A program made the translations under genes and the position numbers. A model generated the notes under the pieces. The model was given only the letters and a program-made list of their open reading frames with translations, was not told the origin of the DNA and made no database searches. DNA of 64,000 nucleotides from Lachnospiraceae bacterium (lineage in GTDB: Bacteria > Bacillota > Clostridia > Lachnospirales > Lachnospiraceae), in assembly GCA_902363555.1 (NCBI GenBank), contig CABJAM010000002.1, forward strand, positions 489,709 through 553,708, read 5' to 3'. Below, piece by piece: positions 24,225-45,474 of the stretch (position 1 is the first letter of the stretch; each line of letters opens with the position of its first letter).

Positions 24225-24944
24225 ATGGAGATGCTTGCTGTGATCTGCGACGATCTCGCGGGTGACCGGGAGATCCTGCTGGATTTTTGTGCCCGATATG
24301 CAAAAAACAACCATATGTCCATCGCTGCGCTGGACTTTGAAAACGCCGGAGCGCTGCTGCAGAGCCGGGAGGCCCGGAGCGCCGACGTGATATTTCTCGA
24401 TATTTATATGGAAGGCGCCCTGGGGGTGGACGCCGCCCGCATCCTGCGGGGGAAGGGCTTTCGCGGCGCACTGGTCTTCACGACCACCAGCCGGGAGCAC
24501 TACGCGGACGGCTTCGATGTGGAAGCCTCCCATTACCTGATCAAGCCGATAAGCTGGGAAGCTTTCTGTGAGGCTATGCGCCGGGCCCATGACCGGATGA
24601 GTGCTCCCGCCCGAAAGGTGCGCGTGACCGCCGGGCGGGATGAACTGGATGTGGACGTTTCCGGTATCCAATATGTGGAGGTCTACGGGCACAAAACGAT
24701 ACTGCATACCCTGCGGGGCGAGGTGGTGGTCTCCCAGTCCCTTACCGCGCTGGAAGAACGACTGGGCGGCGACCCGTTTTTGCGGTGTTACCGCTACTTT
24801 ATCGTCAACATGGACTTTGTGAAGCGCATGAACGAGGACAACTTTTTAATGAAGGACGGCCGGGAAATCCCCCTCTCACGGGATGGGCGGGCCGCTCTCA
24901 AGAGCCGGTACATGGCCTATGTGTTCGGCCGGATGGAGGGATGA
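24225..24944 (+). CDS. LytTR-family response regulator (AgrA-like)
   Basis: Receiver domain plus LytTR DNA-binding domain (YVEVYGHKTILHTLRGEVV...YFIVNMDFV). RBS AAAGGAGG. Confidence 0.9.
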   Translation: MEMLAVICDDLAGDREILLDFCARYAKNNHMSIAALDFENAGALLQSREARSADVIFLDIYMEGALGVDAARILRGKGFRGALVFTTTSREHYADGFDVEASHYLIKPISWEAFCEAMRRAHDRMSAPARKVRVTAGRDELDVDVSGIQYVEVYGHKTILHTLRGEVVVSQSLTALEERLGGDPFLRCYRYFIVNMDFVKRMNEDNFLMKDGREIPLSRDGRAALKSRYMAYVFGRMEG

Positions 24945-24948
24945 TACG

Positions 24949-26319
24949 ATGGAAACGATTGCTGCGGAATATATCACCTGTGTGATCGAGGCGGCCATGA
25001 CCATGTTCTTCTGCCTCTATGTGGCCCGCGATCTGCTGCGGGTACGGATGCGGATCCTGGCACCGGCGGTGGCGCTGCTGGCCATCGCGGGCAGTGCGGG
25101 GAGTATGGCGCTGTCGGCATGGCTGAGCGCCTGGCTGCCCTTTTCAATGGACACCAGCACGGTATCCCTGCCGCTCTGGTTTGCTGTGGGCTATTTCAGC
25201 CTGCGCCGGGCCACCCACGAGCGGGCAGGCGGGCTGCTGTTCATCCTCCTCCTATCGGTGCAGGTACTTCATGTATGCCGGAGCACCACCTACTTTTTCT
25301 ACGGTCTCTTTTCCCCCGGTATGGCCGACGGCGCATACTGCTGGGCGGATATTCCGGGCTTTGGCATCCCATCTGTGGTGCTGACGTTCCTGCTGGCGGC
25401 ATTCTGTCACGGGCTCTACAAGAAACTGCGGGGGATCGATCTGCGGGGATATCTTCAGTTGTGGTTCATCCCCCTGTTCTTCGTGATCCTTTATGTCCTG
25501 CAGACCAACATCTATCCGCTGGGGAGTTTCACCCTCACAAACGGTTTCCGCCTTTTGATCAGTTTATGCGCTTTCGTGACCTACTCTCAGATGGTCTCAG
25601 CCATCGCTCACGCAGCGATGGCGGCGAGGGAAACAGAGACCCATACCCAGCTTGCCCACCAGTTGGATCTGCAGCGGGCGCGGGTGGACGATTTAGAGAG
25701 TCACGCTGAGGAAATGAAGCGCATTCGCCACGACCGCAGGCAGCATGTCCAGGTCCTGCGGGGCCTGTTGGAAAAGGACGAGGTCGCCGAAGCGCTCGCC
25801 TATCTTGATGATTATGAGGACAGCATGGCCAGCGCGATCCGGCCGCCCCTGTGTGAAAACTTCGTGGCCGACACGCTCTGCCGCCGCTACGAGACGCTGG
25901 CAAAGCAATCAAACATCACGGTGACGATGAATGTTGCTCTGCCTAAAGAGCCGGGCGTATCGGGCAGCGATCTTGCAGTCATCCTGGGCAACCTGTGGGA
26001 AAACGCCGTGGCCGCCGCACTGGACGCGGAGGAAGCACGCCGCTTTATCCGCCTGCGGATACAGACCCAGGAGGATCAGGTGCTGATCCGTATGGAGAAT
26101 GGCTACGGCGGAGTGATCTGCCAGGATGGCGAGCGGTTTTTATCCTCCAAGCCGGGCCGTAACCTGGCCGAGGGAGTGGGCATTGCCAGCATCCGCTCAA
26201 TGGCCCGGCGCTACGGCGGCATGGCGGCCTTTGACTATACCCCGGACACCTTTACTGCCTCAGTGCTGCTCTACCCGCGGACATCGGGAACGTTCTGCCC
26301 GACAGGTATCGGAGTATAA
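24949..26319 (+). CDS. AgrC-like multi-TM GHKL sensor histidine kinase
   Basis: Six or more TM helices followed by an HATPase_c_5-like domain. Start METIAAEY 5 nt after the regulator's stop codon. Confidence 0.8.
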   Translation: METIAAEYITCVIEAAMTMFFCLYVARDLLRVRMRILAPAVALLAIAGSAGSMALSAWLSAWLPFSMDTSTVSLPLWFAVGYFSLRRATHERAGGLLFILLLSVQVLHVCRSTTYFFYGLFSPGMADGAYCWADIPGFGIPSVVLTFLLAAFCHGLYKKLRGIDLRGYLQLWFIPLFFVILYVLQTNIYPLGSFTLTNGFRLLISLCAFVTYSQMVSAIAHAAMAARETETHTQLAHQLDLQRARVDDLESHAEEMKRIRHDRRQHVQVLRGLLEKDEVAEALAYLDDYEDSMASAIRPPLCENFVADTLCRRYETLAKQSNITVTMNVALPKEPGVSGSDLAVILGNLWENAVAAALDAEEARRFIRLRIQTQEDQVLIRMENGYGGVICQDGERFLSSKPGRNLAEGVGIASIRSMARRYGGMAAFDYTPDTFTASVLLYPRTSGTFCPTGIGV

Positions 26320-26453
26320 CGTCATTTTTGTATATTCTTAGGTCATTTTTGTTGATTATTAAATTTCTATAAAAATGCTATGATACAAATATACAAAAAA
26401 CAAACCGATGCTTTGTGCAATATGAGCATCCACGAAATTCAGGAGGTAAGTAT

Positions 26454-28085
26454 ATGAAAAGATTTTTGGCAATCGCGCTCGTACTTGTCATGTCGTTATC
26501 TTTATTGGCAGGCTGTGGTTCCAGCAATTCCGGCTCTAAGGACACAAAAGCCCCGGCCGCAACCGAAGCAAAGGGTGATACCGCAGCCCCCGACGGAACG
26601 CAGGCTCCGGACGCTACCGATGGCAGTGAAGGCGGCGCAGCCTCTGCCGGCACATCAAAAGATTACATCAACTTTGACGAAGACCCCTATGAAGTTGTTA
26701 TTGAATGTCTGAACCTTGGCTCCAACGCCGAAAGTGTTCCAGCTATGGAAGAAGCCATTAACGCCATTACAGTTCCGGCAATCAACGTTAAGGTTAAGCT
26801 TCAGGTCATCCACATTGCAGACCATGCCACAAAGACAGCCCTGTGGGCCGCCGGTGGTGAAAAGATCGATATCTATTATGTTGGTACGACCGTAGCCTTC
26901 TCCCAGTTCGTATCCGATGGTATGATCATCCCGATCACCGACTTACTTGCAGAACGCGGCGCTACACTGAATGAAAAATGTGCTGAACTTCTGGACGCCT
27001 TTACTGTTGAAGGCGAGATTTATGCCATCCCTCAGGATATCTACTGCGCAGCAGCCAGAGGTATTGACTATAATGCCGATATGGCAAAGGAATGCGGTAT
27101 TGAACTTCCTGAAAAATGGGATATGCAGGCGATGACAGATATCGGCCATGCAATCAAGGAAGCGAATCCGGAATACTATCTGATGGCTAAAAACGGTTCT
27201 CAGGATGCCGGTGAAATCTATTACTACTACGGTATGGATGGTTTCGGCAGCAGCACCGGCGCTTACGGCGTTTTCTTAAATCCGGAAACCGATACCGAGA
27301 TCGTAAACCTTTATACATCCGATGAATTTAAAGAGTACTGCAAATTCAACATCGAATGGAAGGAAAATGGCTTTATGCCCGCAGACCAGGCAGTGAACGG
27401 TGAAAACGCCCAGGACGTTTACAGAAATGGTATGAGCTTCTGCCAGTGGGTAAGCGTTCGTCCTTCCGAAGAAATTTCCAAACAGAACTTTACACCATTT
27501 GACAGCCAGGAAGCCGCATTTACAAATGCATGGTTTACAAGCTCAGGTGTACAGGAAAAAGCATGGGGCATTTCCACAAACTGTGAAAAGCCTGAGAAAG
27601 CTATGGATTTCTTAAACTTCTTATATGAAAATACAGAAGTTGCCAATATCCTCAACTATGGTATTGAAGGTACCGATTACGTTTACACCGATGGCTCCGA
27701 CAAGATCATTACATATCCGGAAGGCATCGACTCCACAAACGTGGGCTGGAACCGTTCCTTCTGTATGTTTGGCGACCAGAGCGAAATCAACCAGATGGTT
27801 CCTGCCACAGAAGAATACTATACAACACTTAAAGAATTTAACGATAACGCTGTTGCCTGCAAAACTCTTGGCTATTCTTTCGACGCCACCAACGTTTCCA
27901 CACAGGTAGCCGCAGTGTCCAACATCGTTCAGGAATACGTTCCAAGCCTTGTTTACGGTGAAATTTCCGAAGATAAGCTGGATACCTATCTGGAAGATAT
28001 GAACGCTAAGCTTGAAAGCGCCGGCATTCTGGATATCATCGCCGAGAATCAGGCACAGCTCAACGCATGGCTTGAAACCAGATAG
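26454..28085 (+). CDS. ABC transporter substrate-binding lipoprotein (LplA-like)
   Basis: Lipobox LLAGCGSS. Size about 540 aa. AGGAGG RBS. Confidence 0.9.
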   Translation: MKRFLAIALVLVMSLSLLAGCGSSNSGSKDTKAPAATEAKGDTAAPDGTQAPDATDGSEGGAASAGTSKDYINFDEDPYEVVIECLNLGSNAESVPAMEEAINAITVPAINVKVKLQVIHIADHATKTALWAAGGEKIDIYYVGTTVAFSQFVSDGMIIPITDLLAERGATLNEKCAELLDAFTVEGEIYAIPQDIYCAAARGIDYNADMAKECGIELPEKWDMQAMTDIGHAIKEANPEYYLMAKNGSQDAGEIYYYYGMDGFGSSTGAYGVFLNPETDTEIVNLYTSDEFKEYCKFNIEWKENGFMPADQAVNGENAQDVYRNGMSFCQWVSVRPSEEISKQNFTPFDSQEAAFTNAWFTSSGVQEKAWGISTNCEKPEKAMDFLNFLYENTEVANILNYGIEGTDYVYTDGSDKIITYPEGIDSTNVGWNRSFCMFGDQSEINQMVPATEEYYTTLKEFNDNAVACKTLGYSFDATNVSTQVAAVSNIVQEYVPSLVYGEISEDKLDTYLEDMNAKLESAGILDIIAENQAQLNAWLETR

Positions 28086-28200: not shown

Positions 28201-29175
28201 ATGGCAGCGAATGCAAAAGCAACCAATGTAAATCCTGACACCATGGATTTAAAAGATATTCCAAAGAAAAATAAAACAAAGTTCCGCCACTGGATCCCAT
28301 TTTATATCATGGGCCTCCCAGGCATGCTCTACCTGATCATCAACAATTACCTGCCCATGTTCGGCCTGCAGATCGCCTTTAAGAAATTCAACTACTCTCA
28401 GGGTATCTGGGGCAGTAAATGGTGTGGTCTTTCAAACTTCGAGTACCTGTTTTCATCCGACCAGGCGTTTCGTATCACACGAAACACCATCCTGTATAAT
28501 CTGGCTTTCATCGTCCTTGGCATGGTCTTTGGCGTGGCCGTGGCCATCCTTGTCAATGAGGTCATCAGCAAAGCGGCAAAGCGCTTTTACCAGACCGTCA
28601 TCCTTCTGCCCTACCTGATGTCCATGGTAATCATCGCTTATCTTGTATTTGCTTACTTAAGCCCCTCCACGGGTCTGTTCAACTCCATCATCACCAGTCT
28701 TGGCGGCGAGGGTGTGGACTGGTACAGGGAAAAGGCCTACTGGCCCTTTATCCTCATCTTTGTCCAGCAATGGAAATCCATCGGCTTTGGTATGGTGCTT
28801 TATCTGTCCTCCATCGTCGGTATCAGCAAGGAATATTATGAGGCGGCTCAGATCGACGGGGCCACCAAATGGCAGCAGATCCGCAAAATCACACTGCCTC
28901 TGTTAAAGCCTACCATCATCACACTGCTCATCCTTAACTGCGGTAATATTTTCCGGTCTGATTTTGGTCTGTTCTATCAGGTGCCTATGAACCAGGGTAC
29001 ACTGTACGCCGTCACCGACACGATCGATACGTTCGTGTACCGCGGTCTGATGGTTAAGCCCAACATGGCCATGTCCTCGGCCGCCGGCTTCTATCAGTCC
29101 ATCGTAGGCTTTATCTGCATCGTAACGGTCAACGGAATCATCCGCAAGGTCAGCAAAGAAAATGCAATGTTTTAA
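28201..29175 (+). CDS. sugar ABC transporter permease (LplB-like)
   Basis: Six-TM permease with EAA-like motif. Confidence 0.9.
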   Translation: MAANAKATNVNPDTMDLKDIPKKNKTKFRHWIPFYIMGLPGMLYLIINNYLPMFGLQIAFKKFNYSQGIWGSKWCGLSNFEYLFSSDQAFRITRNTILYNLAFIVLGMVFGVAVAILVNEVISKAAKRFYQTVILLPYLMSMVIIAYLVFAYLSPSTGLFNSIITSLGGEGVDWYREKAYWPFILIFVQQWKSIGFGMVLYLSSIVGISKEYYEAAQIDGATKWQQIRKITLPLLKPTIITLLILNCGNIFRSDFGLFYQVPMNQGTLYAVTDTIDTFVYRGLMVKPNMAMSSAAGFYQSIVGFICIVTVNGIIRKVSKENAMF

Positions 29176-29190
29176 GAAGGAGGGAACACT

Positions 29191-30072
29191 ATGGTATCCA
29201 GAGACGAAAAAAGATGGCGCGCTGCGGCCCATATTATATTAATTATCCTGTCTTTTCTGGCAATAATGCCGTTTATATTACTTGTGATCGCCTCCTTCAC
29301 AGATGAAAAGGTGGCGCTGACCAATGGCTATTCGTATTTTCCGGCCAAATTTTCACTGGCGGCCTATTCTTATATCGCCAATGAAGCATCCACGATCTTC
29401 CGTGCTTACGGCGTAACGATCATTGTTACTGTGATCGGAACGATTGTCGGTCTGATCATTACATCCATGCTGGCCTACATGCTTTCCAGAGAAGGCCTTC
29501 CGGGCCGTAAGGTGCTGAACTTCCTCGTCATTTTTACAATGCTCTTTAACGGCGGCCTTGTGCCGACCTACCTGATTTACGCGTCGGTATTCCACATTAA
29601 GGATACACTGTTTGCACTGATCATTCCCAGCTTATTGATGAACGCATTTAACATCATACTGGTGAAAAATTATTTTACATACAGCCTTCCTCAGGAATTA
29701 TTTGAATCCGCACGTATGGATGGCGCCGGCGAGTTCAAAGTGCTGCGCACCATCGTTCTCCCGCTGTCCAAGCCCATCCTTGCCACCGTCGGACTGATGA
29801 TCGCTATCGCCTACTGGAATGACTGGCAGAATGGTCTGTATTACTTAAATGACACAAAGCTTTACAGTATCCAGAACATTCTCAACGCCATTAACACAAG
29901 CGTCCAGTTCCTGGCCTCCAACAGCGTCAGCGGCGCCAATATGGCCGATATCCCATCCACAACCGTCCGTATGGCCATCGCTGTGGTGGGTGTCATCCCC
30001 ATCATTATCGCCTATCCATTTTTCCAGAAATACTTTGTCAAAGGTATCACTATGGGCGCGGTAAAGGGCTGA
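29191..30072 (+). CDS. carbohydrate ABC transporter permease (LplC-like)
   Basis: Permease fold. RBS AAGGAGG. Confidence 0.9.
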   Translation: MVSRDEKRWRAAAHIILIILSFLAIMPFILLVIASFTDEKVALTNGYSYFPAKFSLAAYSYIANEASTIFRAYGVTIIVTVIGTIVGLIITSMLAYMLSREGLPGRKVLNFLVIFTMLFNGGLVPTYLIYASVFHIKDTLFALIIPSLLMNAFNIILVKNYFTYSLPQELFESARMDGAGEFKVLRTIVLPLSKPILATVGLMIAIAYWNDWQNGLYYLNDTKLYSIQNILNAINTSVQFLASNSVSGANMADIPSTTVRMAIAVVGVIPIIIAYPFFQKYFVKGITMGAVKG

Positions 30073-33064: not shown

Positions 33065-34012
33065 TTATCGTATTCCCAGTTCCTTCTGCATCATCAGCCG
33101 CTCTTTAATCAAGCGGACAAAGTCCTCCGGCTCTGTCACGCGCACCAGCGGCCCAAAGGAAAGGACGCGTATAACAAGCTCTGTCGCGTCTCCGGCATCA
33201 TAAAACACCTTCACCTCGTAGAAATTATCAGAGAGACGCCGGGCTTCCTTTTGAAAGTGTGCAAAATGGAGCATGACCCGCTCCAGGGCATTTCTCTGGT
33301 CTGTCAGCCGGAGCACAAAATAATGCTTTTCCTTTTCGTCCGCGGAATGCTCTGCACTAAAAACCTCATCGGTGATCTTGCAGTCCGTTATCCTGCTCAT
33401 ATTAATCATACAGCTTCCCTGGCGGCGGGTCGCGATCAGCCGGAACTTATCATCCTTCTCAGAATATTCCAGCTTATGAGGTGTGCACATAAGCTTACAC
33501 AGCCGGCCATGCCGGTTATGAAATCGCAGTCTCAGATTTTTTTCCTGCCGGATCGCCTTTAATATGATCTGAAAATTTTGTATATACACCGGATCTGAAA
33601 AGTCATCGCCATCCTTATACTGATCAAAAACCGTAAAATCCTCCGGCGTGAACAGGGGCTCCATCTTATCGGCCATTGCCCATATATCCGCTAAATCTGC
33701 GGAAGATTTCTCTGTCGTCAGGTCACAAAACAGACAAAACCTGGGGTCCAGACGGATGGACTTGAGCCACCGCAGCTCAAGAGTGGTCAACGGCATTTCC
33801 AGCTTCTGCTTCAATGGCGTATGCAAAGCGTCATCCAGCAGGGGCCACTGATGACTTTCCAGCGCAGGCACAATGGTCATCGCACTTTCGGCAAAAGCCA
33901 TTTCGTGAATGATCCTGTACATTTCATTGGAGGTCAGCTTTCCATCCACCGCCAGCGCCAGTACTTTAGCCACCGCTTTATAATAGCAGCCGTAAATTTC
34001 ATGGAACAGCAT
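33065..34012 (-). CDS. WYL-domain transcriptional regulator (with WCX-like C-terminal domain)
   Basis: Central WYL-like beta-barrel region (RLRFHNRHGR...FRLIATRR). AAGGTGGTG RBS before MLFHEIYG. Confidence 0.65.
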   Translation of the reverse strand: MLFHEIYGCYYKAVAKVLALAVDGKLTSNEMYRIIHEMAFAESAMTIVPALESHQWPLLDDALHTPLKQKLEMPLTTLELRWLKSIRLDPRFCLFCDLTTEKSSADLADIWAMADKMEPLFTPEDFTVFDQYKDGDDFSDPVYIQNFQIILKAIRQEKNLRLRFHNRHGRLCKLMCTPHKLEYSEKDDKFRLIATRRQGSCMINMSRITDCKITDEVFSAEHSADEKEKHYFVLRLTDQRNALERVMLHFAHFQKEARRLSDNFYEVKVFYDAGDATELVIRVLSFGPLVRVTEPEDFVRLIKERLMMQKELGIR

Positions 34013-35309
34013 CCGTATCACCACCTTCCAGATCATAAAGCCTGTACATATCCCCCATATCCGCGCGGAACTGATTTTCCACGGTCCGGTTTGAGAAATC
34101 CATCTGGACGATACGGCAGATAAATGTACGTATCCATGGGATCATTTCCGTTGTATCAAATATATCGGCCGTAAAACGGGCCGTATGGGCATCGATGCGT
34201 TCCACCTGTCCGCAGCGCCGCTCCCGCATCAGCCGCTGATAGATATGCTCCTCGCCCCGGCCGATGTGTATCGTAAATTCCACATGCTCCAGATGCGATA
34301 ATTTATTTTTACACTGCACACCCCACATATGCTTTTTCAATACTTCCAGCCTTTGTCGTAACGACTCAAACTGCGCTGCTTCCGTACCCGGATCTACCTG
34401 GGTAATATAATCCAGGCGGTAAGATTCCATACATTTATAGGGTACACAATACCCCATCAAATACTGGCGTCCGGTCTGGGCGCTGACAAAAATCTGAAGC
34501 GGGATGACCTCCCATGACCTGGGCGTTTTAGTCACCCGGCTATAATTTTTTATAAACACAGACCGCCGGGCATTTATAGCCTCCAGCAGCTCATATAGTA
34601 TCTCACTCTCCATGGCATATGTAATGTAATGATGCTTAAAAGCAAAGCAGCTCACAGCCCCCTGGGAATGGTGAGCTAAAACCGGTGATATTTTCTCAGC
34701 GCCGGAAGTTCCAGCATCCATCCGGTCCAGCAAATAACTTCCGATAACGCCCAGAAGTCCGGCTTCGGAAAAGAACGCCACCGCCTCCGCCGCAGGCGCC
34801 AGATCATACGATGGACTTCGGCCATAAAGGACCGTCCTTCCGGCCTTTTCCGTATGGAGCAGCCCCATTGCCGCATATTCCTTTAATTTATTCCGCACCG
34901 TAGAAGCATCAAACAGCATGGGCGGTGAAAAGTGCGACAGATAATCCCGGTCCATAAGCTCCATAATCTCATTCAATGATAATCGTATTTCAGGATCACA
35001 CAATATATCCAATAGTATAAAATGCAGCGTAATATCTCCATCCGTAAAGCTTTTCGCCTTGAACGCCTGGTACAGCGGATTATGCCCGGTACTTCTGCTG
35101 TCAATGGACAGGAACATATTTTTTCCGCCCTGTTCCATACGAAAGGACATATAGTCACCCAAATAGCTTTCGATACGTCGGCGCTCATTGTCATAAGACC
35201 GGGCGCTTTTATGGTCAAATTCGTCACGGCTTTTGAAACCATAGACGTAAAACTCGCGCATATAATCACGGATGCGTTCAAATACTTTGATCCGCTCAGA
35301 ATAGGGCAT
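33999..35309 (-). CDS. WYL-domain protein (second, tandem)
   Basis: WEVIPLQIFVSAQTGRQYLMGYC is a WYL core. GGGAGGTG RBS before MPYSERIK. Confidence 0.6.
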   Translation of the reverse strand: MPYSERIKVFERIRDYMREFYVYGFKSRDEFDHKSARSYDNERRRIESYLGDYMSFRMEQGGKNMFLSIDSRSTGHNPLYQAFKAKSFTDGDITLHFILLDILCDPEIRLSLNEIMELMDRDYLSHFSPPMLFDASTVRNKLKEYAAMGLLHTEKAGRTVLYGRSPSYDLAPAAEAVAFFSEAGLLGVIGSYLLDRMDAGTSGAEKISPVLAHHSQGAVSCFAFKHHYITYAMESEILYELLEAINARRSVFIKNYSRVTKTPRSWEVIPLQIFVSAQTGRQYLMGYCVPYKCMESYRLDYITQVDPGTEAAQFESLRQRLEVLKKHMWGVQCKNKLSHLEHVEFTIHIGRGEEHIYQRLMRERRCGQVERIDAHTARFTADIFDTTEMIPWIRTFICRIVQMDFSNRTVENQFRADMGDMYRLYDLEGGDTDAVP

Positions 35310-35367
35310 AGATACACCTCCCGCAATGCAGCCATTCAAAAAGAGCCCAACGGCTGCATCTTATTGC

Positions 35368-36324
35368 TTATTGTGACCGGATGATATTTTCCAGTTTTCT
35401 TATCGTCATCCGGTCTTTGGCTTTATTGGCCAATAACAGGCTGACCAGTACGGCCATCAGCAGTTCTACAAATAACCGCTTACCGGATATAATACCTGGT
35501 TTGGGCCTTATATCCAGATACCATGTCGTTCCTGGTACATCGAAGGTATAAGCGCCCTTCTGCTCCATAATGTCTCCGGACGATGCAAGGACATAATTGT
35601 TAAATTGATAAGGGCACGATAGCGTATAGCTGTAAGTGTCAAGATAATAATTCAGCAAAGTACTTCTGGGCAGCACCGCCGCCATATATCCTCCATTTTC
35701 ATAATTATTCATAGATCTTACAAGAGCAAAATCCTCGAATCCCAAGGGAAATATATAATCCTGGCCATTGGCCAATGCTTCACAGGCTTTGTCTCTGAAA
35801 TAGATATAATTATAATTCAGCAACGCTGTGCCTATGGACTCCGCTTCGCTGCCATAGAGCATAAAGTCGTGCCCACGCATATAATCCACAATTTTTTGTG
35901 CCGCTCTTGATCTCAATATGATTTCGGTTCCCGTATTTCTTCCCGAACGCCAGTATGAAAAAGCGGTACCCTGTTCAGGAATATAAGTCAGGCTGTCCAC
36001 ACTCAAATCCGATGTAACTAAAAACTCTATATGATATTTAAATATAGATTCATTCTCATTAAACACATCGGAATAGTAGTCCTCACATGCCTGATCCATC
36101 AGGGAAATCGTTTTGTCCAGGGCATTTTGTACGTACTCCTGACATTCTGCAACATATGCGGATAGTTTCTGTTTTGCCCGAACATAATGCAAAAATTCAA
36201 ATATTAAGAAAACACTTAGGCTGATCACCAGCGTTAAAATAAACACGTTGCTAAAAACCTTTCCCTTTTTATCCCACTGCTCTAATTTCTTTTCCAAAAG
36301 AACCCCTCCTCTCATAAACCACAC
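35368..36324 (-). CDS. membrane protein resembling the N-terminal sensor part of a YesM-type histidine kinase (truncated?)
   Basis: TM1, an extracytoplasmic domain of about 230 aa, then TM2, ending 18 aa after TM2 with no kinase domain. Confidence 0.45.
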   Translation of the reverse strand: MWFMRGGVLLEKKLEQWDKKGKVFSNVFILTLVISLSVFLIFEFLHYVRAKQKLSAYVAECQEYVQNALDKTISLMDQACEDYYSDVFNENESIFKYHIEFLVTSDLSVDSLTYIPEQGTAFSYWRSGRNTGTEIILRSRAAQKIVDYMRGHDFMLYGSEAESIGTALLNYNYIYFRDKACEALANGQDYIFPLGFEDFALVRSMNNYENGGYMAAVLPRSTLLNYYLDTYSYTLSCPYQFNNYVLASSGDIMEQKGAYTFDVPGTTWYLDIRPKPGIISGKRLFVELLMAVLVSLLLANKAKDRMTIRKLENIIRSQ

Positions 36325-36572: not shown

Positions 36573-37799
36573 TTAAAGTACAGAAATCGGACAATACCAG
36601 GTTTCGCGATTGTATGGAATCAGCGCATCGCTCATACAAAGGATGAGCCCCGGCTGCACATCCATTTTAAACGAACTGAGAACGCCAAAGTTTTTATCCG
36701 GCTTAGAAGGTTCCTTTCCCTTTTTAATTTCAATAGGAAAAATCTTGTCTCCTTTCACAATCAACAGATCGATCTCCTTTTTGTCCATATCCCGATAGTA
36801 AAACAAGTCTGCAGGTTTCCCCGCATTATAATAGCTTTTAACAATTTCTGTTACCACCCAGGTTTCAAGAAAAGCTCCATCCATTGCACCATTTTCCAAT
36901 GTTTGTGCGGTAGGCCAGCGGCATAGATATGCAGCGAGCCCTGTATCCATGAAATAGACCTTAGATGTTTTAACCAGTCGTTTTGTAATGTTTGAATAAT
37001 ACGGCCGAAGGATGAAAATTATGCCGGAACGCTCCAAAATGGAAACCCAAGCCTTAGCAGTAGGTGCAGATACTCCAATCGTGTTTGAAATTTCATCATA
37101 CTTCAGTTCCTGACCCGTCCGCGCTGCCATATAAACAAGAAAATCATAAAATTCATTCAATTTCCCCACCTGTGCTAAATCCTTGATATCCCGCTCAATG
37201 TAGGTATTGACGTAGTCCATATAAAAACGTTCCCGATCAATTGCTGTAGCACACAGTTTTGGCATACCGCCACGGAAAATCCGTTCATAAATCTGATGAA
37301 CATCTTTCTTTTTACAATCCTTCATCCTTTCACGAATCGCTGATAGTTCTGGTTCAAACATACCGGATGGACGCCCTTCTATTTCTGATTCTGAAAGGCT
37401 GGACATATCAAAGACTGCGATCCGTCCTGCCAATGACTCGGAAACATCCTGCATCATTTTGAACTTCTGTGATCCCGTGATCCAGAACATTCCACTGTTA
37501 TCCTCACCGGCAAGCGCTTTCTGATCAATAATCTTTTTCATTTCCAGTAGTATAGAAGGTACACGCTGAAACTCATCAATAAGAAGCGGATATCCATAGG
37601 TTTCAAAAAAAAGAGCCGGGTCTGTGAGGGCTAATCTGCGGGCATTGCCATCATCCAGTGTAACATATTGGCGGTTCGATTCCCTGATGTGATTCAGCAT
37701 CGTCGATTTACCTACCTGACGCTGGCCGCAAACCATCACAACCGGGTAATACTTTGAAGCTTCCAATACTTGCGCTTCTAAGTGACGTTGAATATACAT
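36573..37799 (-). CDS. AAA-family ATPase with DUF4143 domain (paralog of 4372-5745)
   Basis: P-loop GQRQVGKST. RBS AAAGAGGTG. Confidence 0.8.
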   Translation of the reverse strand: MYIQRHLEAQVLEASKYYPVVMVCGQRQVGKSTMLNHIRESNRQYVTLDDGNARRLALTDPALFFETYGYPLLIDEFQRVPSILLEMKKIIDQKALAGEDNSGMFWITGSQKFKMMQDVSESLAGRIAVFDMSSLSESEIEGRPSGMFEPELSAIRERMKDCKKKDVHQIYERIFRGGMPKLCATAIDRERFYMDYVNTYIERDIKDLAQVGKLNEFYDFLVYMAARTGQELKYDEISNTIGVSAPTAKAWVSILERSGIIFILRPYYSNITKRLVKTSKVYFMDTGLAAYLCRWPTAQTLENGAMDGAFLETWVVTEIVKSYYNAGKPADLFYYRDMDKKEIDLLIVKGDKIFPIEIKKGKEPSKPDKNFGVLSSFKMDVQPGLILCMSDALIPYNRETWYCPISVL

Positions 37800-38884: not shown

Positions 38885-39346
38885 TCATAAAAAAACTTTG
38901 TCCAATTCTGTTCGCAATGCCGACTTCATTTGCTCAAGTTCCCCGGCATCAGGTCTGTTAGCGTCGCAATACATTTTCTCCATCGGATACCACCACACAG
39001 GGCCAGCACCGTTATTGCCATAATTTTCAAGGTCGCCTTTAACTCTCGGATACAAATGCCAGTGCAAATGCGCGTCGCCCTGCCCCAGACATTCGTAATT
39101 CATCTTTTCCGCATGGAAAGCATTCTTCACAGCCTTTGCAACGATCATCATCTCCTGCATAAATTTATTCGCAAACGGCCTTTCCAGATTGAATAGCTCT
39201 GTTTCATGCCGCTTACATAGAAATAAAGTATAGCCCTTAAAATGCTGATTATCACCGATAACAACATAACCTGTCTCTAACTCTTTTACAAAATACGGAT
39301 TTTCCCCTTTTTGTATCATTTTAATTCTGTCACATATTAAGCACAT
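38885..39346 (-). CDS. HIT-family hydrolase
   Basis: Histidine triad HLHWHLYPR. GGAGG RBS. Confidence 0.9.
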   Translation of the reverse strand: MCLICDRIKMIQKGENPYFVKELETGYVVIGDNQHFKGYTLFLCKRHETELFNLERPFANKFMQEMMIVAKAVKNAFHAEKMNYECLGQGDAHLHWHLYPRVKGDLENYGNNGAGPVWWYPMEKMYCDANRPDAGELEQMKSALRTELDKVFL

Positions 39347-39478
39347 AAGATTGCCTCCACAACATCCACTTTATACTTCTTAAAATCATTTTTATAGCAA
39401 TGTTAAAAAAGTATCATAATGTAAATTATACAATAGAAATAGATCACAAACAAGAGCCCCCTAATATATTTGACCAGA

Positions 39479-39513
39479 AAAGGGCAGTACCAAAACGATA
39501 CTGCCCTTTTAAT
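39479..39513. terminator. hairpin terminator downstream of the XRE/lanM transcription unit
   Basis: AGGGCAGTA-CCAAAACGA-TACTGCCCT followed by TTTT. Confidence 0.55.
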
Positions 39514-39521: not shown

Positions 39522-39842
39522 TCATTTCAACGACCGTATAAATTCCAGCAACGCCCTTTCCGATTCCGGCTTCAATCCCCGGAGCAGCTCGATGATCTCC
39601 CGCTCATTCGGGCTTGGATAAATAATATCCGCATCCTCATCACAAAAAAATTCGCTCAACGACACACCCATGCAGTCCAACAACCGCCTCAGCACATAAA
39701 ATGACGGCTGACTGTTCCCGCGCTCAATGGCGGTTATATGGCTCTGGGATATATCGGATACCAGGGCCAGCCGATACTTACTCATCCCTCTTTGTAACCT
39801 GATCTTTTTCATCGTATAGCCAATGTTTTCTTCCGTTATCAT
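39522..39842 (-). CDS. XRE-family HTH transcriptional regulator
   Basis: HTH (MSKYRLALVSDISQSHITAIERG). AAGAGGTGA RBS before MITEEN. Its 5' end overlaps the lanM 3' end. Confidence 0.75.
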   Translation of the reverse strand: MITEENIGYTMKKIRLQRGMSKYRLALVSDISQSHITAIERGNSQPSFYVLRRLLDCMGVSLSEFFCDEDADIIYPSPNEREIIELLRGLKPESERALLEFIRSLK

Positions 39843-42800
39843 TACCCTCACCTCTTATTAATTTCAACAGGCCATAGCCTATTCCACTAATTCCCGGCAT
39901 AAAACCTGCATTATAAAGCTCCTGAGGTAAAAATTCCATACGCTGCGTTGCTCTGATCAAATCTGTTATAATGTCCGTACAGTATTTTCTCAGTTCGTTC
40001 GCTTTATCGGAAGCAAATCCACATTCTAAAACCATCGCTGCGATCATGGCATTGCCTGTATTTCCATGGCACAGACAATAGCCCTTGCGATATTTATTTT
40101 CCATCATCTTGCTGAGTGCCTTTTGAATATCTTCATCCACGATCTCAGCCGCAATTTCCGGACACATCTTTTTCATGGCAAGACGCGCCATAAGCACACC
40201 GGGAGCACCATGACACCAGGCCACCGTATCAAAATAAGTATCATCACCGGCCGCCGGTTTGCCATGACTTATTTTCCGTAAGTCCTTCCAGTTCTTTATC
40301 GCCGGCTCATAAAGGGAATTTTCGTAAGCCAGCAGTTCCCCCAGCAATAACGCATCATCCGGGTTATGTGTCACGGCATACAAATGAGCGAAGGCTGCGA
40401 TAAAACCACTGTTTCCATGGGAAATGCCCGCCAGCGGAACTTCCTCGCCTTTAATACGCCAGCCTTTTCCCACATCCATCGACTGTGCATGCCCACGTAA
40501 TAGCTGTGCGGCTTCCTCCGCCAGATCAAGATACTTTTGCTCTTTCGTCAGCTCATACAACAACACCCAGGCAACCATCGCGCCTGCATTTCCCGACAAA
40601 AGGTCAAAACACGTATCCTCACGAAATACTTTTTCAAGGACCTCGCTGTGCTTCCGGGCAAAAAGAAGGTATACCGGGTCCTCATAGGTTTTGTACCAGC
40701 ACAAATATACGTAAATCAAAGAGGCTTCCCCGGAAAAGATACCGGAATTGGCCTTCAGCCCGGTCTGGCTGAGCTGTTTCGTTGTATAATCAAAAAGCTG
40801 CCGCCGGATACACATAAATATATTTTTAAATCGGGCTTCCCCCGTAACATTCCAAAGCTCAGACATAAAAAGGCCGGTTCCGGCCAATCCATCATACAAA
40901 TACATATTTTGAACGCCCAGATGCCAATTGACCTCATCCATTCCCAAATAGATCAGCGCCGGCCACAGGGCCTCCTGAGTTACATCATCGTAAATCATCA
41001 GATCCAGCAAATGCCCGCCAAGCCGTACGGCCGTGTCCAGACAATCCTGCTGTGTCCATGGCCTGCTGTTCTCATCATTTTTTTCCAGATATGTATTCAC
41101 ATAGCTTCTGGCCGTATCCGGTATGAGCTCCAGCGACAGAGAGATGATTCCGGTCTGAAAATTCCGGTCAGCACTACACAGGCCGGATAATTTAGCTTTA
41201 AAGTCATCGAGCGCCGACGTTTTATAATAGTTTTCATATTCCATGCCAAAGCTGTCAAACAAAGAGCATGTCGTACCCTTTGTATAAAAATATGGAATAT
41301 CCCGGTAGCTGAGACATTCCGTCTCATACCGGACAATTTTATTCTTCCACGGACCTTTGACCTTGTCACTGTTGCGCAGTTCCCAGAAAAATAAATTCTG
41401 GCGGTACATATCCGTCAAAAACGCCGGGTAGGCGGATGTGCTCATATACATACTATATTGCTGTGTATTTCTAAGCAGGCAGCGGCTGTTCAGATTAAAA
41501 ATATCCTCCGCACCGCTGAGTAATTCTTCCCGGTGAGCACACGCATAATCGTAGGCCATACGAAAACCGGAAAGCAGTTCCTGCGTATATTCCGCCGGGT
41601 CCACCATACTGCCATTCAAAATCGGAAGATTGTCCTTCATCTCGATTTCGGGATGGTACATCACGATTTTCATATCCGAAGTTTTTCCGTTCACGGCACA
41701 CGGCACTTTCACAGGAAGCTTCTGCCGTCCGCCCTTGCCCAGGGCTCCCAGCCGGACACCCCGGCCGTCAAAATTCCATACCGCCATAGGCAGCGCTCCG
41801 GTGGTCAATGTGGAATTTGCCAGCTTGATCAATGCCTGTGACTGGATACTGCCATCCTCACTCTGCCATGATTTCCCCGGAAATGTCTCCAGATCCACAA
41901 GCACAGGATACTCGCCCACAGCCATTATATTTTCATAATGCATATCTTTTATGGAGAACAGATAACAGATAAAAAGCTGTATGCCAAGGCGCCGGTAATA
42001 GCGTCCGATTTCTTCCCGGCGATGGCAATGATCCGTATGTAAAAACTCCGACCAGCCATAGCTGCCCCGGTCCAAAAGCTTACATTCGTAAATGTCCAGC
42101 CCGCAGGCATTGGCAAAACGGCTATACAGCTTTTGATATAAAATATCATTTTTAACTGTTCTCGGTTTATATATCAAGGTGCGTCCATTATCAAAAGTAA
42201 CTTTAATGACAGTTCTTCCGCCAAAATGCGCATCCGAAAAATTCATTTCCAAATCCAAAATTTTTTCGATACGGTTCCCATCCAAAAGTGTCGTCTCAAT
42301 ATCCGCTTTATCATCCAGAAAATGCTGGGTAAATTCCTCAAGATATCTTCCAAGCTGTAATGTCATATTTAAATACAGCCGGAGGATGACCGGATATTTA
42401 TCCAGCAATTTCTGATGATGCTCCCGGTCGGCCAGGTAATGGCTCACATAAAATTCATATTCTTCTTTTGAATTATTCCCGGTAAGCTGCTGTTGATTTT
42501 TCAGAGCCTTCATGTCGTTGATCAAAACTCTCAGGGCCAGAGATTCCGTTTTCTTAAACAGAAGCATGAGAAGCATCGTCTGAATCTGACTGTTATAGCT
42601 TAACCAGACCGTCTCATGGTGCTTCAAAAAATACTCACCGGCAAATCCCATCAAAGGTTCATAAAAGCTGTAAAAACATTCTTCCCGAAGCCAGGCTTCG
42701 TAGTAGTTATGCTCTTTTGCTTTATATTCCTGAATCATCTCGCTTAATATGGCATCATCGTTGTTCTTATAGCAATCGTCCGAACTCGCTAATACATATT

Positions 42801-42891
42801 CAAGCGTGGACTTTCCCAGAAGGTCCGACCAGTATTTGCGTTCAGGTGAATTTTTTAAAATCTCTTTTGCCCATTGATTTTTACGGTACAT
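39778..42891 (-). CDS. lanM: class II lanthipeptide synthetase (LanM)
   Basis: 1037 aa. N-terminal dehydratase domain plus C-terminal LanC-like cyclase with zinc-ligand motifs WCHGAPG and CHGNTG and GxAG repeats. AAAGGAG RBS. Confidence 0.9.
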   Translation of the reverse strand: MYRKNQWAKEILKNSPERKYWSDLLGKSTLEYVLASSDDCYKNNDDAILSEMIQEYKAKEHNYYEAWLREECFYSFYEPLMGFAGEYFLKHHETVWLSYNSQIQTMLLMLLFKKTESLALRVLINDMKALKNQQQLTGNNSKEEYEFYVSHYLADREHHQKLLDKYPVILRLYLNMTLQLGRYLEEFTQHFLDDKADIETTLLDGNRIEKILDLEMNFSDAHFGGRTVIKVTFDNGRTLIYKPRTVKNDILYQKLYSRFANACGLDIYECKLLDRGSYGWSEFLHTDHCHRREEIGRYYRRLGIQLFICYLFSIKDMHYENIMAVGEYPVLVDLETFPGKSWQSEDGSIQSQALIKLANSTLTTGALPMAVWNFDGRGVRLGALGKGGRQKLPVKVPCAVNGKTSDMKIVMYHPEIEMKDNLPILNGSMVDPAEYTQELLSGFRMAYDYACAHREELLSGAEDIFNLNSRCLLRNTQQYSMYMSTSAYPAFLTDMYRQNLFFWELRNSDKVKGPWKNKIVRYETECLSYRDIPYFYTKGTTCSLFDSFGMEYENYYKTSALDDFKAKLSGLCSADRNFQTGIISLSLELIPDTARSYVNTYLEKNDENSRPWTQQDCLDTAVRLGGHLLDLMIYDDVTQEALWPALIYLGMDEVNWHLGVQNMYLYDGLAGTGLFMSELWNVTGEARFKNIFMCIRRQLFDYTTKQLSQTGLKANSGIFSGEASLIYVYLCWYKTYEDPVYLLFARKHSEVLEKVFREDTCFDLLSGNAGAMVAWVLLYELTKEQKYLDLAEEAAQLLRGHAQSMDVGKGWRIKGEEVPLAGISHGNSGFIAAFAHLYAVTHNPDDALLLGELLAYENSLYEPAIKNWKDLRKISHGKPAAGDDTYFDTVAWCHGAPGVLMARLAMKKMCPEIAAEIVDEDIQKALSKMMENKYRKGYCLCHGNTGNAMIAAMVLECGFASDKANELRKYCTDIITDLIRATQRMEFLPQELYNAGFMPGISGIGYGLLKLIRGEGNDNGRKHWLYDEKDQVTKRDE

Positions 42892-42990
42892 GAAAGTCTC
42901 CTTTTAATTCTACTTTGGGATTATAACAGTCTTTCTCTATACAGCCTAAAATCGTATTTAACATAGCCACATAGAATCATAATAATCACA

Positions 42991-43131
42991 AATTATTTTC
43001 TTAGCAGCAAATGATAGTTAAAAACTCACTACATAATGCTGTAATGCTTACAAATCCCTCTACTTCTGTGTTATTCTCAAACTTTTTAATCTCTTTTATT
43101 TCCTCAGCTATGTTAGCTTCTTCAAACCATT
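42991..43131 (-). CDS. lanA: candidate lanthipeptide precursor peptide (LanA), 46 aa, absent from the ORF track
   Basis: Translation MELKWFEEANIAEEIKEIKKFENNTEVEGFVSITALCSEFLTIICC. GAGGTG RBS 9 nt upstream. Acidic helical leader followed by a Ser/Thr/Cys-rich C-terminus. 99 bp upstream of lanM on the same strand. Confidence 0.55.
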
Positions 43132-43168
43132 TTAATTCCATATTTCATTTCACCTCATATGCTTTCAT

Positions 43169-44479
43169 CTAACGAAAAAATGTTATATCTATCCTGAAAC
43201 TTCGTTCATCAAATCTGGTTTCCATTTGACCATTATATTTGTTGACTATTGATTGAATACTAGCTATTCCCCAACCATGGTCGCTGCTTTTGCCTTTTGT
43301 TGATACCATTTGTTCATTTTGTATTATCGGTTTCATTGCAGAGCTATTTTCTACACTTATACCAAAAATATTCCCTTTAGAAAATATCTCAACATCAATT
43401 TTACGGTGTTTAGGTTCGACTTTAAATGCAGCCTCAATAGCATTATCAAGAATATTACCTAATAAAATACTCATATCTCGTTCTGATAATGGATTTTCTA
43501 CCGGAGATACGTTAATATTCATTAGAATCCCAAGTTCCTTAGCTTTTCGCTCTTTGCTATCAAGCATCATATCAATAAGTGGACAATTGGACCGTGCACG
43601 AACTTTGTCATCACCATGACTTAGTTCGCCAAACATTTCATTAAGAAAAGCTCGCGCCGCTCCGTATCTTTCTTCCCTAAGATACCCATCTAAAGTACTA
43701 ATTTGATGTTTTAAATCATGCATTTCCTTTGAGCTTCTTTTATATTCTGCTTTTATTTTTTCATATTCTGCATCCATCATTGCATCGTGAAGTTTCCGCA
43801 AATGAATCTCTTTCTCAGACTGACGATAGATGACTAAAATAATTACTACTATCATCAGTAACAAAGAACAGAAAACAAATAAAAGGTTATAAAAAAATAC
43901 TACACTGCCAGTTTCCTGAAAACCTATTTTCAAAAAATATGTAATTATCCACCATTCTATAAAGGCTAAGGCCACCCATAAAATATTCATTTTGCCTATC
44001 AATATTTTATTAAGTTTAGTTCTTATAACCTTACCCCAAATTTTTACAAAAACAACCAAAATACATGAAATTAAAACCAAATAAATATAGTCGTATATGA
44101 TCGTCTCTTTATTACATTTCAGAAATGGCTTACCTGTAATCCATCCGCTCAAAATTAAGCCTGGCAGTTCTAAAACTGATATGCTCATAAAGTAAATACT
44201 AGACCATGCAAAAGTTTTTAATATATTTATATTCGTAAAAATACAAGCTGAAATAAAATATAAAATCAATTGCATTACAAATATCACATTTGAAAATCTA
44301 ACACCAAACAATCTGTTGATAAATGTCAAACCGCCAATAATACCCATAAACATGGTATATTCCAGTACCCGTACCCACGCCTGCTTAAATCTCCGATGCT
44401 CAGGTACGTCAAATAACCAATAGCCCACCCAAACTTCCACTCCGATATTAAATAAATCCATACACATTCGTATGAACAT
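43169..44479 (-). CDS. AgrC-like multi-TM sensor histidine kinase
   Basis: Six or seven TM helices plus a GHKL ATPase domain. Start codon overlaps the regulator's stop (TAATG). Confidence 0.8.
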   Translation of the reverse strand: MFIRMCMDLFNIGVEVWVGYWLFDVPEHRRFKQAWVRVLEYTMFMGIIGGLTFINRLFGVRFSNVIFVMQLILYFISACIFTNINILKTFAWSSIYFMSISVLELPGLILSGWITGKPFLKCNKETIIYDYIYLVLISCILVVFVKIWGKVIRTKLNKILIGKMNILWVALAFIEWWIITYFLKIGFQETGSVVFFYNLLFVFCSLLLMIVVIILVIYRQSEKEIHLRKLHDAMMDAEYEKIKAEYKRSSKEMHDLKHQISTLDGYLREERYGAARAFLNEMFGELSHGDDKVRARSNCPLIDMMLDSKERKAKELGILMNINVSPVENPLSERDMSILLGNILDNAIEAAFKVEPKHRKIDVEIFSKGNIFGISVENSSAMKPIIQNEQMVSTKGKSSDHGWGIASIQSIVNKYNGQMETRFDERSFRIDITFFR

Positions 44480-45198
44480 TACCTTTTCCTCCTGTAATAC
44501 TCGCTGACTGCCTGTTTCACCTCGCGGATACGGCTGCGGCTGACTTCAACAACATAATCCTTAGTCAGCTCCATTTTGCGATCATCAATACCATTTACAT
44601 GGCTTAAATTGACAATAACGCCTTTATTCACAAAGATAAAACTATCCGAATTCAACACCCTAAGGATGTTGGTCAAAGAACTGCGAACACGATGTTCACC
44701 CGCTCTTGAATATATGATTGAGTATTTCTGGGTCTCTTTCTCAATTTTTATGATATCCGAATGGCAGATCAGAATATTTCCCTGAGGCCGGTCGATCACA
44801 TAATAACGCGCCTTCATTCGTTCCAGTTCCGGTATAATATAATCAAAAGCTTCCGGAAGCTTTTCGTTAATTTTCTCTTTCATAATGTAACGAAAAGCTG
44901 CAACTTCATAACCATCCGTAGCATACTCATTATGATTGGTTATGAATATAATAAAGGCTTCATAATATGCCGACCGTATTGTACGGGCAATGTCGAAGCC
45001 TGTGAACTCCGGCATTTCCACATCCAAAAGATAAATATCAGCTCCTTTACCTTCCAGAATGTCCTGTTTCAGAAAAGAACTGCTTTCATAAGATTCAATT
45101 TGAATCTCTCCCCCTCGTTTTTCAGAATACTCCCTGACCACATTTTCGATATGCCGGATATTCTCCGCTTCATCATCGGCAATGGCAATTTTAATCAC
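44479..45198 (-). CDS. LytTR-family response regulator (AgrA-like)
   Basis: Receiver domain plus LytTR domain. GTG start with AAAGGAGG RBS. Confidence 0.85.
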   Translation of the reverse strand: MIKIAIADDEAENIRHIENVVREYSEKRGGEIQIESYESSSFLKQDILEGKGADIYLLDVEMPEFTGFDIARTIRSAYYEAFIIFITNHNEYATDGYEVAAFRYIMKEKINEKLPEAFDYIIPELERMKARYYVIDRPQGNILICHSDIIKIEKETQKYSIIYSRAGEHRVRSSLTNILRVLNSDSFIFVNKGVIVNLSHVNGIDDRKMELTKDYVVEVSRSRIREVKQAVSEYYRRKR

Positions 45199-45435
45199 TC
45201 ACTCCCCTCCTTTCTTTTTAAAAGTAAGCGGAAGTATTGGCTAAATATTGGTTGTCCATATTATACTATAAAATTTCCACTTATTACCATCTTGTCCACA
45301 AAAAGTGATATACTGTCCACTTTTTCGTCAAAAAGGGTTATATTCCGACATTATATGTGGTTTAGCCATTCCTAACCAATAATAATCACAAAAGTTACCT
45401 CTAATCATTATAGCACATAGCGACCACATATTGCC

Positions 45436-45474
45436 AAAAAATCCCAGAAACAATTCTGCTCCTGGGATTTTTCT
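45436..45474. terminator. hairpin terminator downstream of the aldo/keto reductase gene
   Basis: ATCCCAG...CTGGGAT followed by TTTTT. Confidence 0.55.

Follow-up and report, generated by a model that had tools for sequence, protein, structure and literature searches.

What does a lanthipeptide synthetase do in an operon headed by the genes of an Agr-type sensor pair, and is its product an antibiotic, a signal or something else? The question is raised by five contiguous genes on the minus strand of a 64,000-nucleotide stretch of contig CABJAM010000002.1 from a Lachnospiraceae bacterium, the whole of which is referred to here as the window. A first-pass annotation of this DNA had described a class II lanthipeptide operon with an Agr-type LytTR pair and had suggested that the modified peptide is itself a quorum signal. 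The former description is borne out by the domains, the catalytic residues and a conserved module. For the latter, the computational tests came out in its favour (a kinase-peptide cassette, no LanT or LanFEG, repeats in the promoter), and the signalling role that we infer from them is a probable one: with a probability of roughly 0.6, the operon would be an autoregulated quorum-sensing circuit with a lanthipeptide pheromone. The genes and edges of the operon are the following:

45436-45473, minus strand: intrinsic terminator of the upstream aldo/keto-reductase gene, the upstream edge of the operon
44479-45198, minus strand: response regulator gene, 239 amino acids (aa), GTG start
43169-44479, minus strand: sensor histidine kinase gene, 436 aa
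43001-43141, minus strand: lanA precursor gene, 46 aa
39778-42891, minus strand: LanM gene, 1037 aa
39522-39842, minus strand: XRE-family helix-turn-helix regulator gene, the final gene of the operon (Pfam HTH_3, 3.3e-13)
39476-39506, minus strand: intrinsic terminator 3' of the XRE gene, which closes the operon

All five open reading frames (ORFs) annotated before were recovered, and all of them are intact. The stop codon of the regulator gene and the start codon of the kinase gene share 1 nt (TAATG), an overlap that had been reported and is indeed seen in the sequence, and 27 nt separate the kinase gene from lanA, whose ribosome-binding site GAGGTG lies 9 nt 5' of the ATG. The spacer between lanA and lanM measures 109 nt (42892-43000) and not 99 bp as previously given, and the ATG of lanM is preceded by AAAGGAG. 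The start of the XRE gene is ambiguous, the candidates being a GTG at 39851, an ATG at 39842, which follows AGGTGAGG, and an ATG at 39812; under each of the three, the gene overlaps the 3' end of lanM. The terminator at 45436-45473 consists of a perfect stem of 17 bp with a T-run behind it (-22.1 kcal/mol, z = -6.2) and the one at 39476-39506 reaches -23.2 kcal/mol (z = -6.4), values that were equalled by 0 of 200 shuffled sequences in both cases. This spacing, the translation signals and the two strong flanking terminators are those of a single operon of five genes, in which no further ORF was found. A hairpin in the lanA-lanM spacer of the window, which might have been an attenuator or terminator, is not significant (z = 0.28), and terminator-like hairpins are located in the same spacer in four related loci (L001, L004, L005 and L009; loci of relatives are given L numbers). 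Rfam and tRNA scans gave no match inside the operon. The kinase and peptide genes stand out as AT-rich: the GC content is 0.32 in the former, 0.31 in the latter, 0.45 in the LanM gene, 0.49 in the XRE gene and 0.49 in the whole window.

The modifying enzyme matches the Pfam domains DUF4135 (E = 8e-96) and LANC_like (E = 3e-55), in agreement with its first assignment as a LanM, scores 739 bits on TIGR03897 (cut-off 304) and aligns with LicM2 (6st5, E = 2.5e-86) and CylM (5dzt, E = 4e-60). Every catalytic and zinc-binding residue is kept on this alignment: D252, H254 and K274 of CylM, which are involved in activation and phosphorylation, correspond to D220, H222 and K242; the catalytic and Mg residues D347, H349, N352 and D364 to D316, H318, N321 and D333; R506 and T512, involved in elimination, to R470 and T476; and the zinc ligands C875, C911 and H912 to C893, C941 and H942. 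All twelve residues are invariant across 13 family members, and LanM is a class II lanthipeptide synthetase with a complete set of catalytic residues.

The nearest published arrangement that was found is that of the LanM-like proteins of the CA_C0082 type, which are located downstream of clostridial agrBD-agrCA; full-length LanMs also occur in some clusters containing agr genes (PMC10301443). The CA_C0082 homologues have 670-728 aa, lack the zinc ligands, the dehydratase residues and a LanA, lie beside a complete agrBDCA and are dispensable for the synthesis of the autoinducing peptide (PMC10301443). The common trait is a LanM homologue genetically tied to an Agr-type system in Clostridia. However, the LanM of the window is full-length, catalytically complete in its residues and provided with a cognate LanA, and neither agrB nor agrD is present. 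A dead enzyme of the CA_C0082 type was ruled out, as all residues are present.

The 46-aa precursor, MELKWFEEANIAEEIKEIKKFENNTEVEGFVSITALCSEFLTIICC, has no match in Pfam or NCBIfam. It consists of an acidic leader and a C-terminal core of 15 residues, SITALCSEFLTIICC, which starts with SITALC, is not preceded by GG or GA and ends at CC without a C-terminal tail. The gene had been expected to escape ORF calling; public callers do call it, however, and the identical peptide is found on at least 24 independent contigs in NCBI, ENA and Logan. When the single 46-aa peptide was used as query in a word-indexed search, only the self-match was obtained, and a profile from 11 peptides gave 56 peptides in the word-indexed database. 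A profile from 36 peptides, used on an exhaustive library at E <= 1e-3 with clustering at 50% identity, extended the precursor family to at least 298 clusters. Among the new representatives, 142 of 142 end in CC plus 0-2 residues and 129 carry [ST]x[ST]xxCxxxx[ST]xxCC at the C-terminus. Core statistics were obtained from 165 distinct cores, which were selected by this motif, so that positions 1, 3, 6, 11, 14 and 15 were preset:

Core positions 1, 3 and 11 (Ser/Thr) and 6, 14 and 15 (Cys): scaffold, required by the selecting motif
Core positions 9, 10, 12 and 13: hydrophobic
Core positions 2, 4, 5 and 8: hypervariable, with an entropy of >3 bits
Position -4: acidic in 118 of 165

Three Ser/Thr together with three Cys imply three thioether rings, the pairing of which is unreadable from the sequence. 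Glu occupies core position 5 in 11 of the 165 cores, a leader ending in G[GAS] is rare among them, and no conserved cleavage motif was found in the family beyond the acidic residue at -4. The leader motif reads AG[DN]L..E[LIM].E[IV] in the wider family and EIxEIKKFE in the subgroup to which the window belongs. Small ORFs at the same position in all related loci are mutually homologous and adjoin the LanM orthologues; a chance ORF was ruled out by this conservation, by the ribosome-binding site and by the size of the family. The first-pass annotation had named a LanM without catalytic residues and a small ORF not conserved beside LanM orthologues as findings that would speak against it; the residues are kept and the ORF is conserved, so neither was encountered.

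Close homologues of the LanM are few, with identities of 85%, 55% and, in three cases, 45%, and the next tier follows at 31-33%. In every relative with upstream DNA available, the genes are arranged in the order regulator (LytTR), kinase (HATPase_c_5), small ORF and LanM, and this order is kept at 55%, 45%, 40% and about 31% LanM identity. Such module loci are L001/L002 (55%), L004, L005, L007, L008 and L009, L007 and L008 being from metagenome-assembled genomes of Ca. Scybalocola, and, in the 31-33% tier, L023, L024 and L026. The LanM clusters of this tier have hundreds of members, including Mediterraneibacter gnavus, Coprococcus, Dorea and Lachnospiraceae, and a metagenome scan added about 25 more gut loci with the same order. 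Since the same four genes follow each other in every close and in many distant relatives, the arrangement goes beyond chance. Remoter LanM loci (Bacillus, Gracilibacillus, Streptococcus, soil) have none of the three upstream genes. The genes 3' of lanM vary by lineage, many of them without a Pfam match, and no exporter, protease or immunity gene downstream of lanM is common to the family loci. Directly 5' of the regulator gene, L023 (4132-4677), L026 (4253-4843) and L024 (14436-14996) encode a soluble protein of about 185 aa without a Pfam match, the copies of which are 28-48% mutually identical; it is missing from the window, and in L024 it also precedes a second regulator-kinase pair.

Neither the operon nor the remainder of the 64-kb window contains LanT (Peptidase_C39/ABC), a protease, LanFEG or other ABC-2 immunity genes, agrB (or any AgrB-like protein) or agrD. 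LanT and LanFEG would likewise be missing if the operon were what is left of a lantibiotic cluster that has lost its transporter and immunity genes and is decaying or no longer functional, and in L003/L028 (1038-4161) lanM is indeed split into a 733-aa ORF with DUF4135 and a 269-aa ORF with LANC_like, which is either a pseudogene or an assembly error; in L027, which has the same peptide as L003/L028, lanM is intact (1040 aa). Decay is nevertheless very improbable for the window, where all ORFs are intact, given that the catalytic residues of LanM are invariant in the family, that the module is kept over large distances and is abundant, as the membership of the LanM clusters and the 298 peptide clusters show, and that the identical peptide recurs on independent contigs.

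The regulator contains the Pfam domains Response_reg (5.6e-13) and LytTR (7.3e-11), and its only full-length match among solved structures is ComE (4cbv). The kinase has about 6-7 hydrophobic segments within residues 1-220, the H-box EMHDLKHQ and a GHKL domain (HATPase_c_5, 5.8e-22), and its only match among solved structures is the kinase module of AgrC from S. aureus (6e52). The NCBIfam AgrC model gives a weak full-length match below the cut-off; since the cut-off of this staphylococcal equivalog is not reached, the kinase is to be regarded as a homologue and not as an orthologue of AgrC. Judged by homology, the pair is of the AgrCA/ComDE type with an HPK10-like kinase, and no agr orthologue. 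A DNA-binding domain of the LytTR and not of the Trans_reg_C type, together with a polytopic kinase, sets it apart from the LanRK systems with OmpR-type regulators and kinases with two transmembrane segments. The XRE gene is present in L003/L028, L027 and L030 and missing from remoter members of the family; being confined to the lineage of the window, it is either a lineage-specific output or an accessory gene.

A second pair of a LytTR regulator (239 aa) and a HATPase_c_5 kinase (478 aa) is encoded at 24225-26319 on the plus strand, directly 5' of a sugar-type ABC uptake system with SBP_bac_1/DUF3502 at 26415-28085 and two BPD_transp_1 permeases at 28201-30072, and neither a peptide nor a LanM gene lies alongside. 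LytTR/GHKL pairs are therefore not always peptide sensors, and the pair of the operon might instead respond to an unrelated peptide, the state of the membrane or a nutrient. The lanthipeptide would then be an output only, with a role other than signalling: it could be a surfactant or morphogen, as SapB is, bind metal or act as an effector inside the cell. Besides the second pair next to sugar uptake, this explanation can draw on the fact that the operon has no exporter gene, which leaves an extracellular role of the peptide hypothetical. What makes it improbable is the manner in which precursor and kinase vary together among strains.

The clearest case is that of L005 and L008, two independent assemblies of the same species. 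Their DNA is 98-100% identical in the 3' part of the regulator gene and the first ~100 nt of the kinase gene, and again in the lanA-lanM spacer, the whole of lanM and the downstream genes; between codon ~34 of the kinase gene and a point some 40 nt beyond the stop codon of the precursor gene, however, identity is 54-82%. At the protein level, LanM is identical, while the sensor half of the kinase is 71%, its cytoplasmic half 57% and the peptide 64% identical. Block edges as sharp as these point to recombinational exchange of alleles rather than to a faster clock. A similar distribution is found when the window is compared with L027, an orthologous locus whose flanking genes are the same; here the proteins are identical to 92% (aldo/keto reductase), 94% (regulator, the most conserved gene of the module), 71% (kinase), 59% (peptide), 86% (LanM), 92% (XRE regulator) and 95% (nucleoside hydrolase). 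In L001, the nucleoside hydrolase is 87% identical to that of the window and the module 55-71%. These patterns suggest that kinase and precursor form a swappable, pherotype-like cassette, as in agr, com and blp, and they are the strongest argument for the peptide being the ligand of the kinase. For a two-component system that senses some other cue, it is hard to explain why the precursor should always be located between the kinase gene and lanM and be exchanged with the kinase as a block, unless the two interact. In addition, the variable positions of the peptide are located inside the rings and the scaffold is fixed, the pattern of a specificity-setting ligand, and the operon appears to be autoregulated.

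The region 5' of the regulator gene contains the following candidate elements:

45293-45320, minus strand: candidate LytTR operator, a GTGGACA direct repeat with 21 bp from start to start, abutting a weak -35
45260-45265, minus strand: -10 hexamer TATAAT, consensus, invariant between window and L001
45253-45280, minus strand: weaker pair GTGGAAA ... ATGGACA, 21 bp apart and flanking the -10, a two-mismatch match
45232-45251, minus strand: direct repeats CCAATATTT and CCAATACTT (CCAATAYTT) in the 5' untranslated region (UTR), 11 bp apart

The sites of AgrA, ComE and PlnC are 9-bp direct repeats with a 12-bp spacer, and thus about 21 bp apart, beside a weak -35. In the window, the two GTGGACA copies are separated by a 14-nt gap and extend to TGTGGACA-N13-TGTGGACA; the pair is the sole exact match in the window, 0.2 matches being expected at <=2 mismatches. 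A TGTGGACA pair with the same 21-bp spacing is also located 5' of the regulator gene of L001. From the first repeat to the ribosome-binding site, window and L001 are 86% identical in DNA, compared with 71% between the regulator proteins, and the similarity ends abruptly just upstream of the first repeat. The weaker pair is conserved in L001 as well, and L007 and L008 carry GTGGCGAAT-type repeats at the equivalent place. No good -35 was located 17 bp upstream of TATAAT, as would be typical of the putative activator-dependent promoter of the operon. As a sequence pattern, direct repeats beside a weak -35 speak for a LytTR regulator that controls its own operon. The repeats in the 5' UTR, which are conserved in L001 and partly, as TAGCCAATGTACTT, in L007 and L008, could be either another operator or an element of the RNA. 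Further copies of the operator in the window amount to two matches with two mismatches, both inside unrelated coding regions, namely at 16569-16596 (plus strand) in a His_kinase/HAMP sensor and at 27895-27922 (minus strand) in a solute-binding protein; they have the string TGGACACTGCGGCT in common and are probably a coincidence.

In a neighbour-joining tree of 58 LanMs, calculated without support values, all kinase-linked enzymes form one clade, which is sister to a LanT-linked clade, with the soil LanMs outside. The latter clade comprises gut loci without kinase and regulator genes (L050, L051, L065-L069, L071 and L073), whose LanMs are about as distant from that of the window as those of L023, L024 and L026. 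Their precursors share the leader motif, here NPAGN[VI]..EL.E, with the kinase-linked family, but the leaders end in AGAG or GGAG, with GG/GA cleavage sites, and the cores are longer, with C-T-x-T-x-E-C before the terminal CC. In each of these loci a Peptidase_C39-ABC_membrane-ABC_tran protein (LanT) follows, and in L065 an ABC_tran and two ABC2_membrane_4 proteins, LanFEG-like, precede. A third type of precursor, ...NPAGNLLTELEAADL...SSGVVCTISVECGSIFTLACC, is found beside related LanMs in L039, L042-L044 and L062; no kinase/regulator pair and no obvious LanT was seen within 5 kb in these loci, whose LanMs branch between the two main clades.

This relationship bears on the possibility that the product is chiefly an antimicrobial lantibiotic that induces its own synthesis in the way of nisin, subtilin and salivaricin A, with the LytTR pair in place of LanRK and the genes for export, leader cleavage and immunity elsewhere in the genome. 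The core resembles a shortened peptide of the lacticin 481 type ([ST]x[ST]xxC, terminal CC), the sister group of the LanM clade consists of true lacticin-481-like clusters, and ABC, FtsX/MacB or S8-peptidase genes are located near several family loci. Bacteriocin loci such as Blp, Pln and Spp are, moreover, classically under the control of HPK10/LytTR systems. However, neither LanT nor LanFEG accompanies the module in a conserved manner, whereas LanT is always present in the sister clade, and no immunity-like gene lies in the 64 kb of the window. The N-terminal half of the lacticin-481-type core is missing, and the Glu of ring A, without which peptides of the lacticin 481 and mersacidin groups do not bind lipid II, is retained in just the 11 cores mentioned above. 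The sole extra operon gene in the window and L027 encodes a regulator, and joint swapping of kinase and peptide is the signature of a signal and its receptor, not of a toxin and its immunity. A primarily antimicrobial product is accordingly unlikely, though it comes closer than sensing of another cue. The family appears to derive from a lantibiotic system of the lacticin 481 type. In this history, the simplest one, LanT and LanFEG would have been lost together with the GG end of the leader and, in the core, the N-terminal segment and the Glu of ring A, and the AgrCA-type sensor pair would have been gained.

In the quorum-sensing circuit that we favour, LanM would bind the acidic leader and dehydrate the Ser/Thr residues at core positions 1, 3 and 11, to which Cys6, Cys14 and Cys15 would be added, resulting in a compact, hydrophobic, tricyclic peptide of about 15-17 residues. 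Leader removal and export would be carried out by machinery encoded outside the operon. Outside the cell, the AgrC-type kinase would recognise the peptide through its polytopic sensor domain and phosphorylate the LytTR regulator, and the regulator would bind the extended repeats 5' of the weak -35 and activate the whole operon in a positive feedback. In the lineage of the window, the co-transcribed XRE regulator could relay the signal to other genes, and exchange of the kinase-plus-precursor segment between strains as a unit would give rise to pherotypes.

Several points weigh against this circuit. The cytoplasmic half of the kinase diverges as much as the sensor half, whereas in agr the divergence is mainly located in the sensor. 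Genes for an exporter or a leader protease are missing from the operon, and none is conserved in the family, which leaves the route of the peptide to the sensor unexplained, and the ABC/FtsX-type (FtsX/MacB) transporters or the S8 protease near some related loci are compatible with an antimicrobial role. Nisin is both an antibiotic and an autoinducer; as a lanthipeptide can be both, the missing Glu motif is also compatible with a different mechanism of killing. Modification, ring pattern, secretion, mature N-terminus and kinase activation are each predicted, the operator assignment is one of sequence pattern, and the LanM tree carries no support values.

Among the known systems, agr (agrBDCA) is similar in its polytopic AgrC-type kinase with HATPase_c_5 and LytTR regulator, in the co-transcription of the (here putative) pheromone and receptor genes, in a candidate direct-repeat operator with presumed positive feedback and in a hypervariable receptor-plus-signal segment, which would here too define specificity groups. 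It differs in that the window operon lacks AgrB and AgrD; that the predicted product has three rings closed by thioether (lanthionine) bridges formed by LanM, as opposed to the one thiolactone or lactone ring of agr; that the core is at the extreme C-terminus, with no C-terminal recognition tail; that the order is regulator-kinase-peptide-enzyme; and that the hypervariable block spans the whole kinase and not the sensor alone. With lantibiotics of the lacticin 481/ruminococcin A type, the operon has in common the LanM enzyme, a leader motif found in both the window family and the sister clade, and a core with [ST]x[ST]xxC at its start and CC at its end, from which three interlocked rings are predicted. 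In contrast to them, it lacks a GG/GA leader end, the N-terminal segment of the core, a C39-ABC LanT and LanFEG, Glu is not conserved in ring A, the third ring donor is at -4 from CC instead of -8, and the regulatory pair is of the AgrCA type.

A lanthipeptide that induces its own operon is also known from NisRK (nisin), SpaRK (subtilin) and CylLS''/CylR1R2, and the cytolysin regulator CylR2 is an XRE-type helix-turn-helix protein, as is the product of the final gene here. However, these systems use kinases with two transmembrane segments and OmpR-type regulators, or a non-kinase membrane protein, and their products are long peptides that act as antibiotics or toxins and have transport, protease and immunity genes of their own. 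As read here, the operon resembles ComCDE, BlpCHR and PlnABCD in the HPK10-type kinase and LytTR regulator, the small pheromone gene in the operon, pherotype polymorphism and 9-bp direct repeats about 21 bp apart. The peptides of those systems, however, are unmodified and linear, with GG leaders and C39-ABC export, whereas here the GG motif is missing and the operon has a modifying enzyme of its own.

Both halves of the proposed circuit are known, lanthipeptide autoinduction from LanRK and CylR1/R2, and AgrC/ComD kinases from the reading of thiolactone or linear peptides. No description of a LanA/LanM pair that replaces AgrB/AgrD beside an AgrCA-only pair, nor any of the precursor family, was found in the full-text literature, with subscription journals outside coverage. 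We see about an even chance that the operon belongs to a large class of Gram-positive pheromones of which no description was found. These would be autoinducing peptides of some 15 residues, with three rings closed by lanthionine bridges, made by a dedicated LanM, read by AgrC-type kinases and diversified into strain-level pherotypes. They would have arisen when a lacticin-481-type antibiotic system was deprived of its parts for killing, export and immunity and re-used for communication, and they would be common among the Lachnospiraceae of the gut and related bacteria (Mediterraneibacter gnavus, Dorea, Coprococcus, Ca. Scybalocola).

If this were the case, lanthionine rings would be a further chemical basis of quorum sensing in Gram-positive bacteria, besides thiolactones (Agr), lactones (Fsr), prenylated Trp (ComX) and linear peptides, and this in some of the most abundant Clostridia of the human and animal gut, whose cell-cell signalling is almost unknown. 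The family would then comprise hundreds of ligands, each with its natural receptor, in which the scaffold is constant and four positions are hypervariable, an ideal set for learning how AgrC-type sensors read cyclic peptides and a source of orthogonal, protease-stable signalling parts. It would also be a concrete case of the conversion of an antibiotic into a signal, in which the sister clade has kept the original, antibiotic condition. In genome-mining pipelines, such clusters probably count as "lantibiotics", a label that would merit reconsideration.

In the neighbourhood of the module, a HIT-family gene at 38885-39346 (minus strand) lies between the operon terminator and the nucleoside hydrolase and is missing from L003/L028 and L027, an indel directly beside the module. 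Further downstream, 33065-36324 and 36573-37799 (both minus strand) encode a WYL-domain protein (446 aa), which is accompanied by two proteins of 323 and 318 aa without a Pfam match, and an AAA_14/DUF4143 ATPase; synteny with L027 extends to the WYL protein and the genes around it, another AAA_14/DUF4143 gene is located at 4372-5745, and the set could be related to defence or to a mobile element. The ORF of 1471 aa at 19518-23933 (minus strand), with CHB_HEX_C_1, Fn3_assoc and Flg_new repeats, probably encodes a surface protein; it lies in a 4-kb stretch with a GC content of 0.61, a compositional outlier compared with 0.49 for the window. The sole Rfam match in the window, which fits a host from the Clostridiales, is a Clostridiales-1 small RNA (RF01699) at 60798-60951 on the minus strand, with a score of 136.6 bits.

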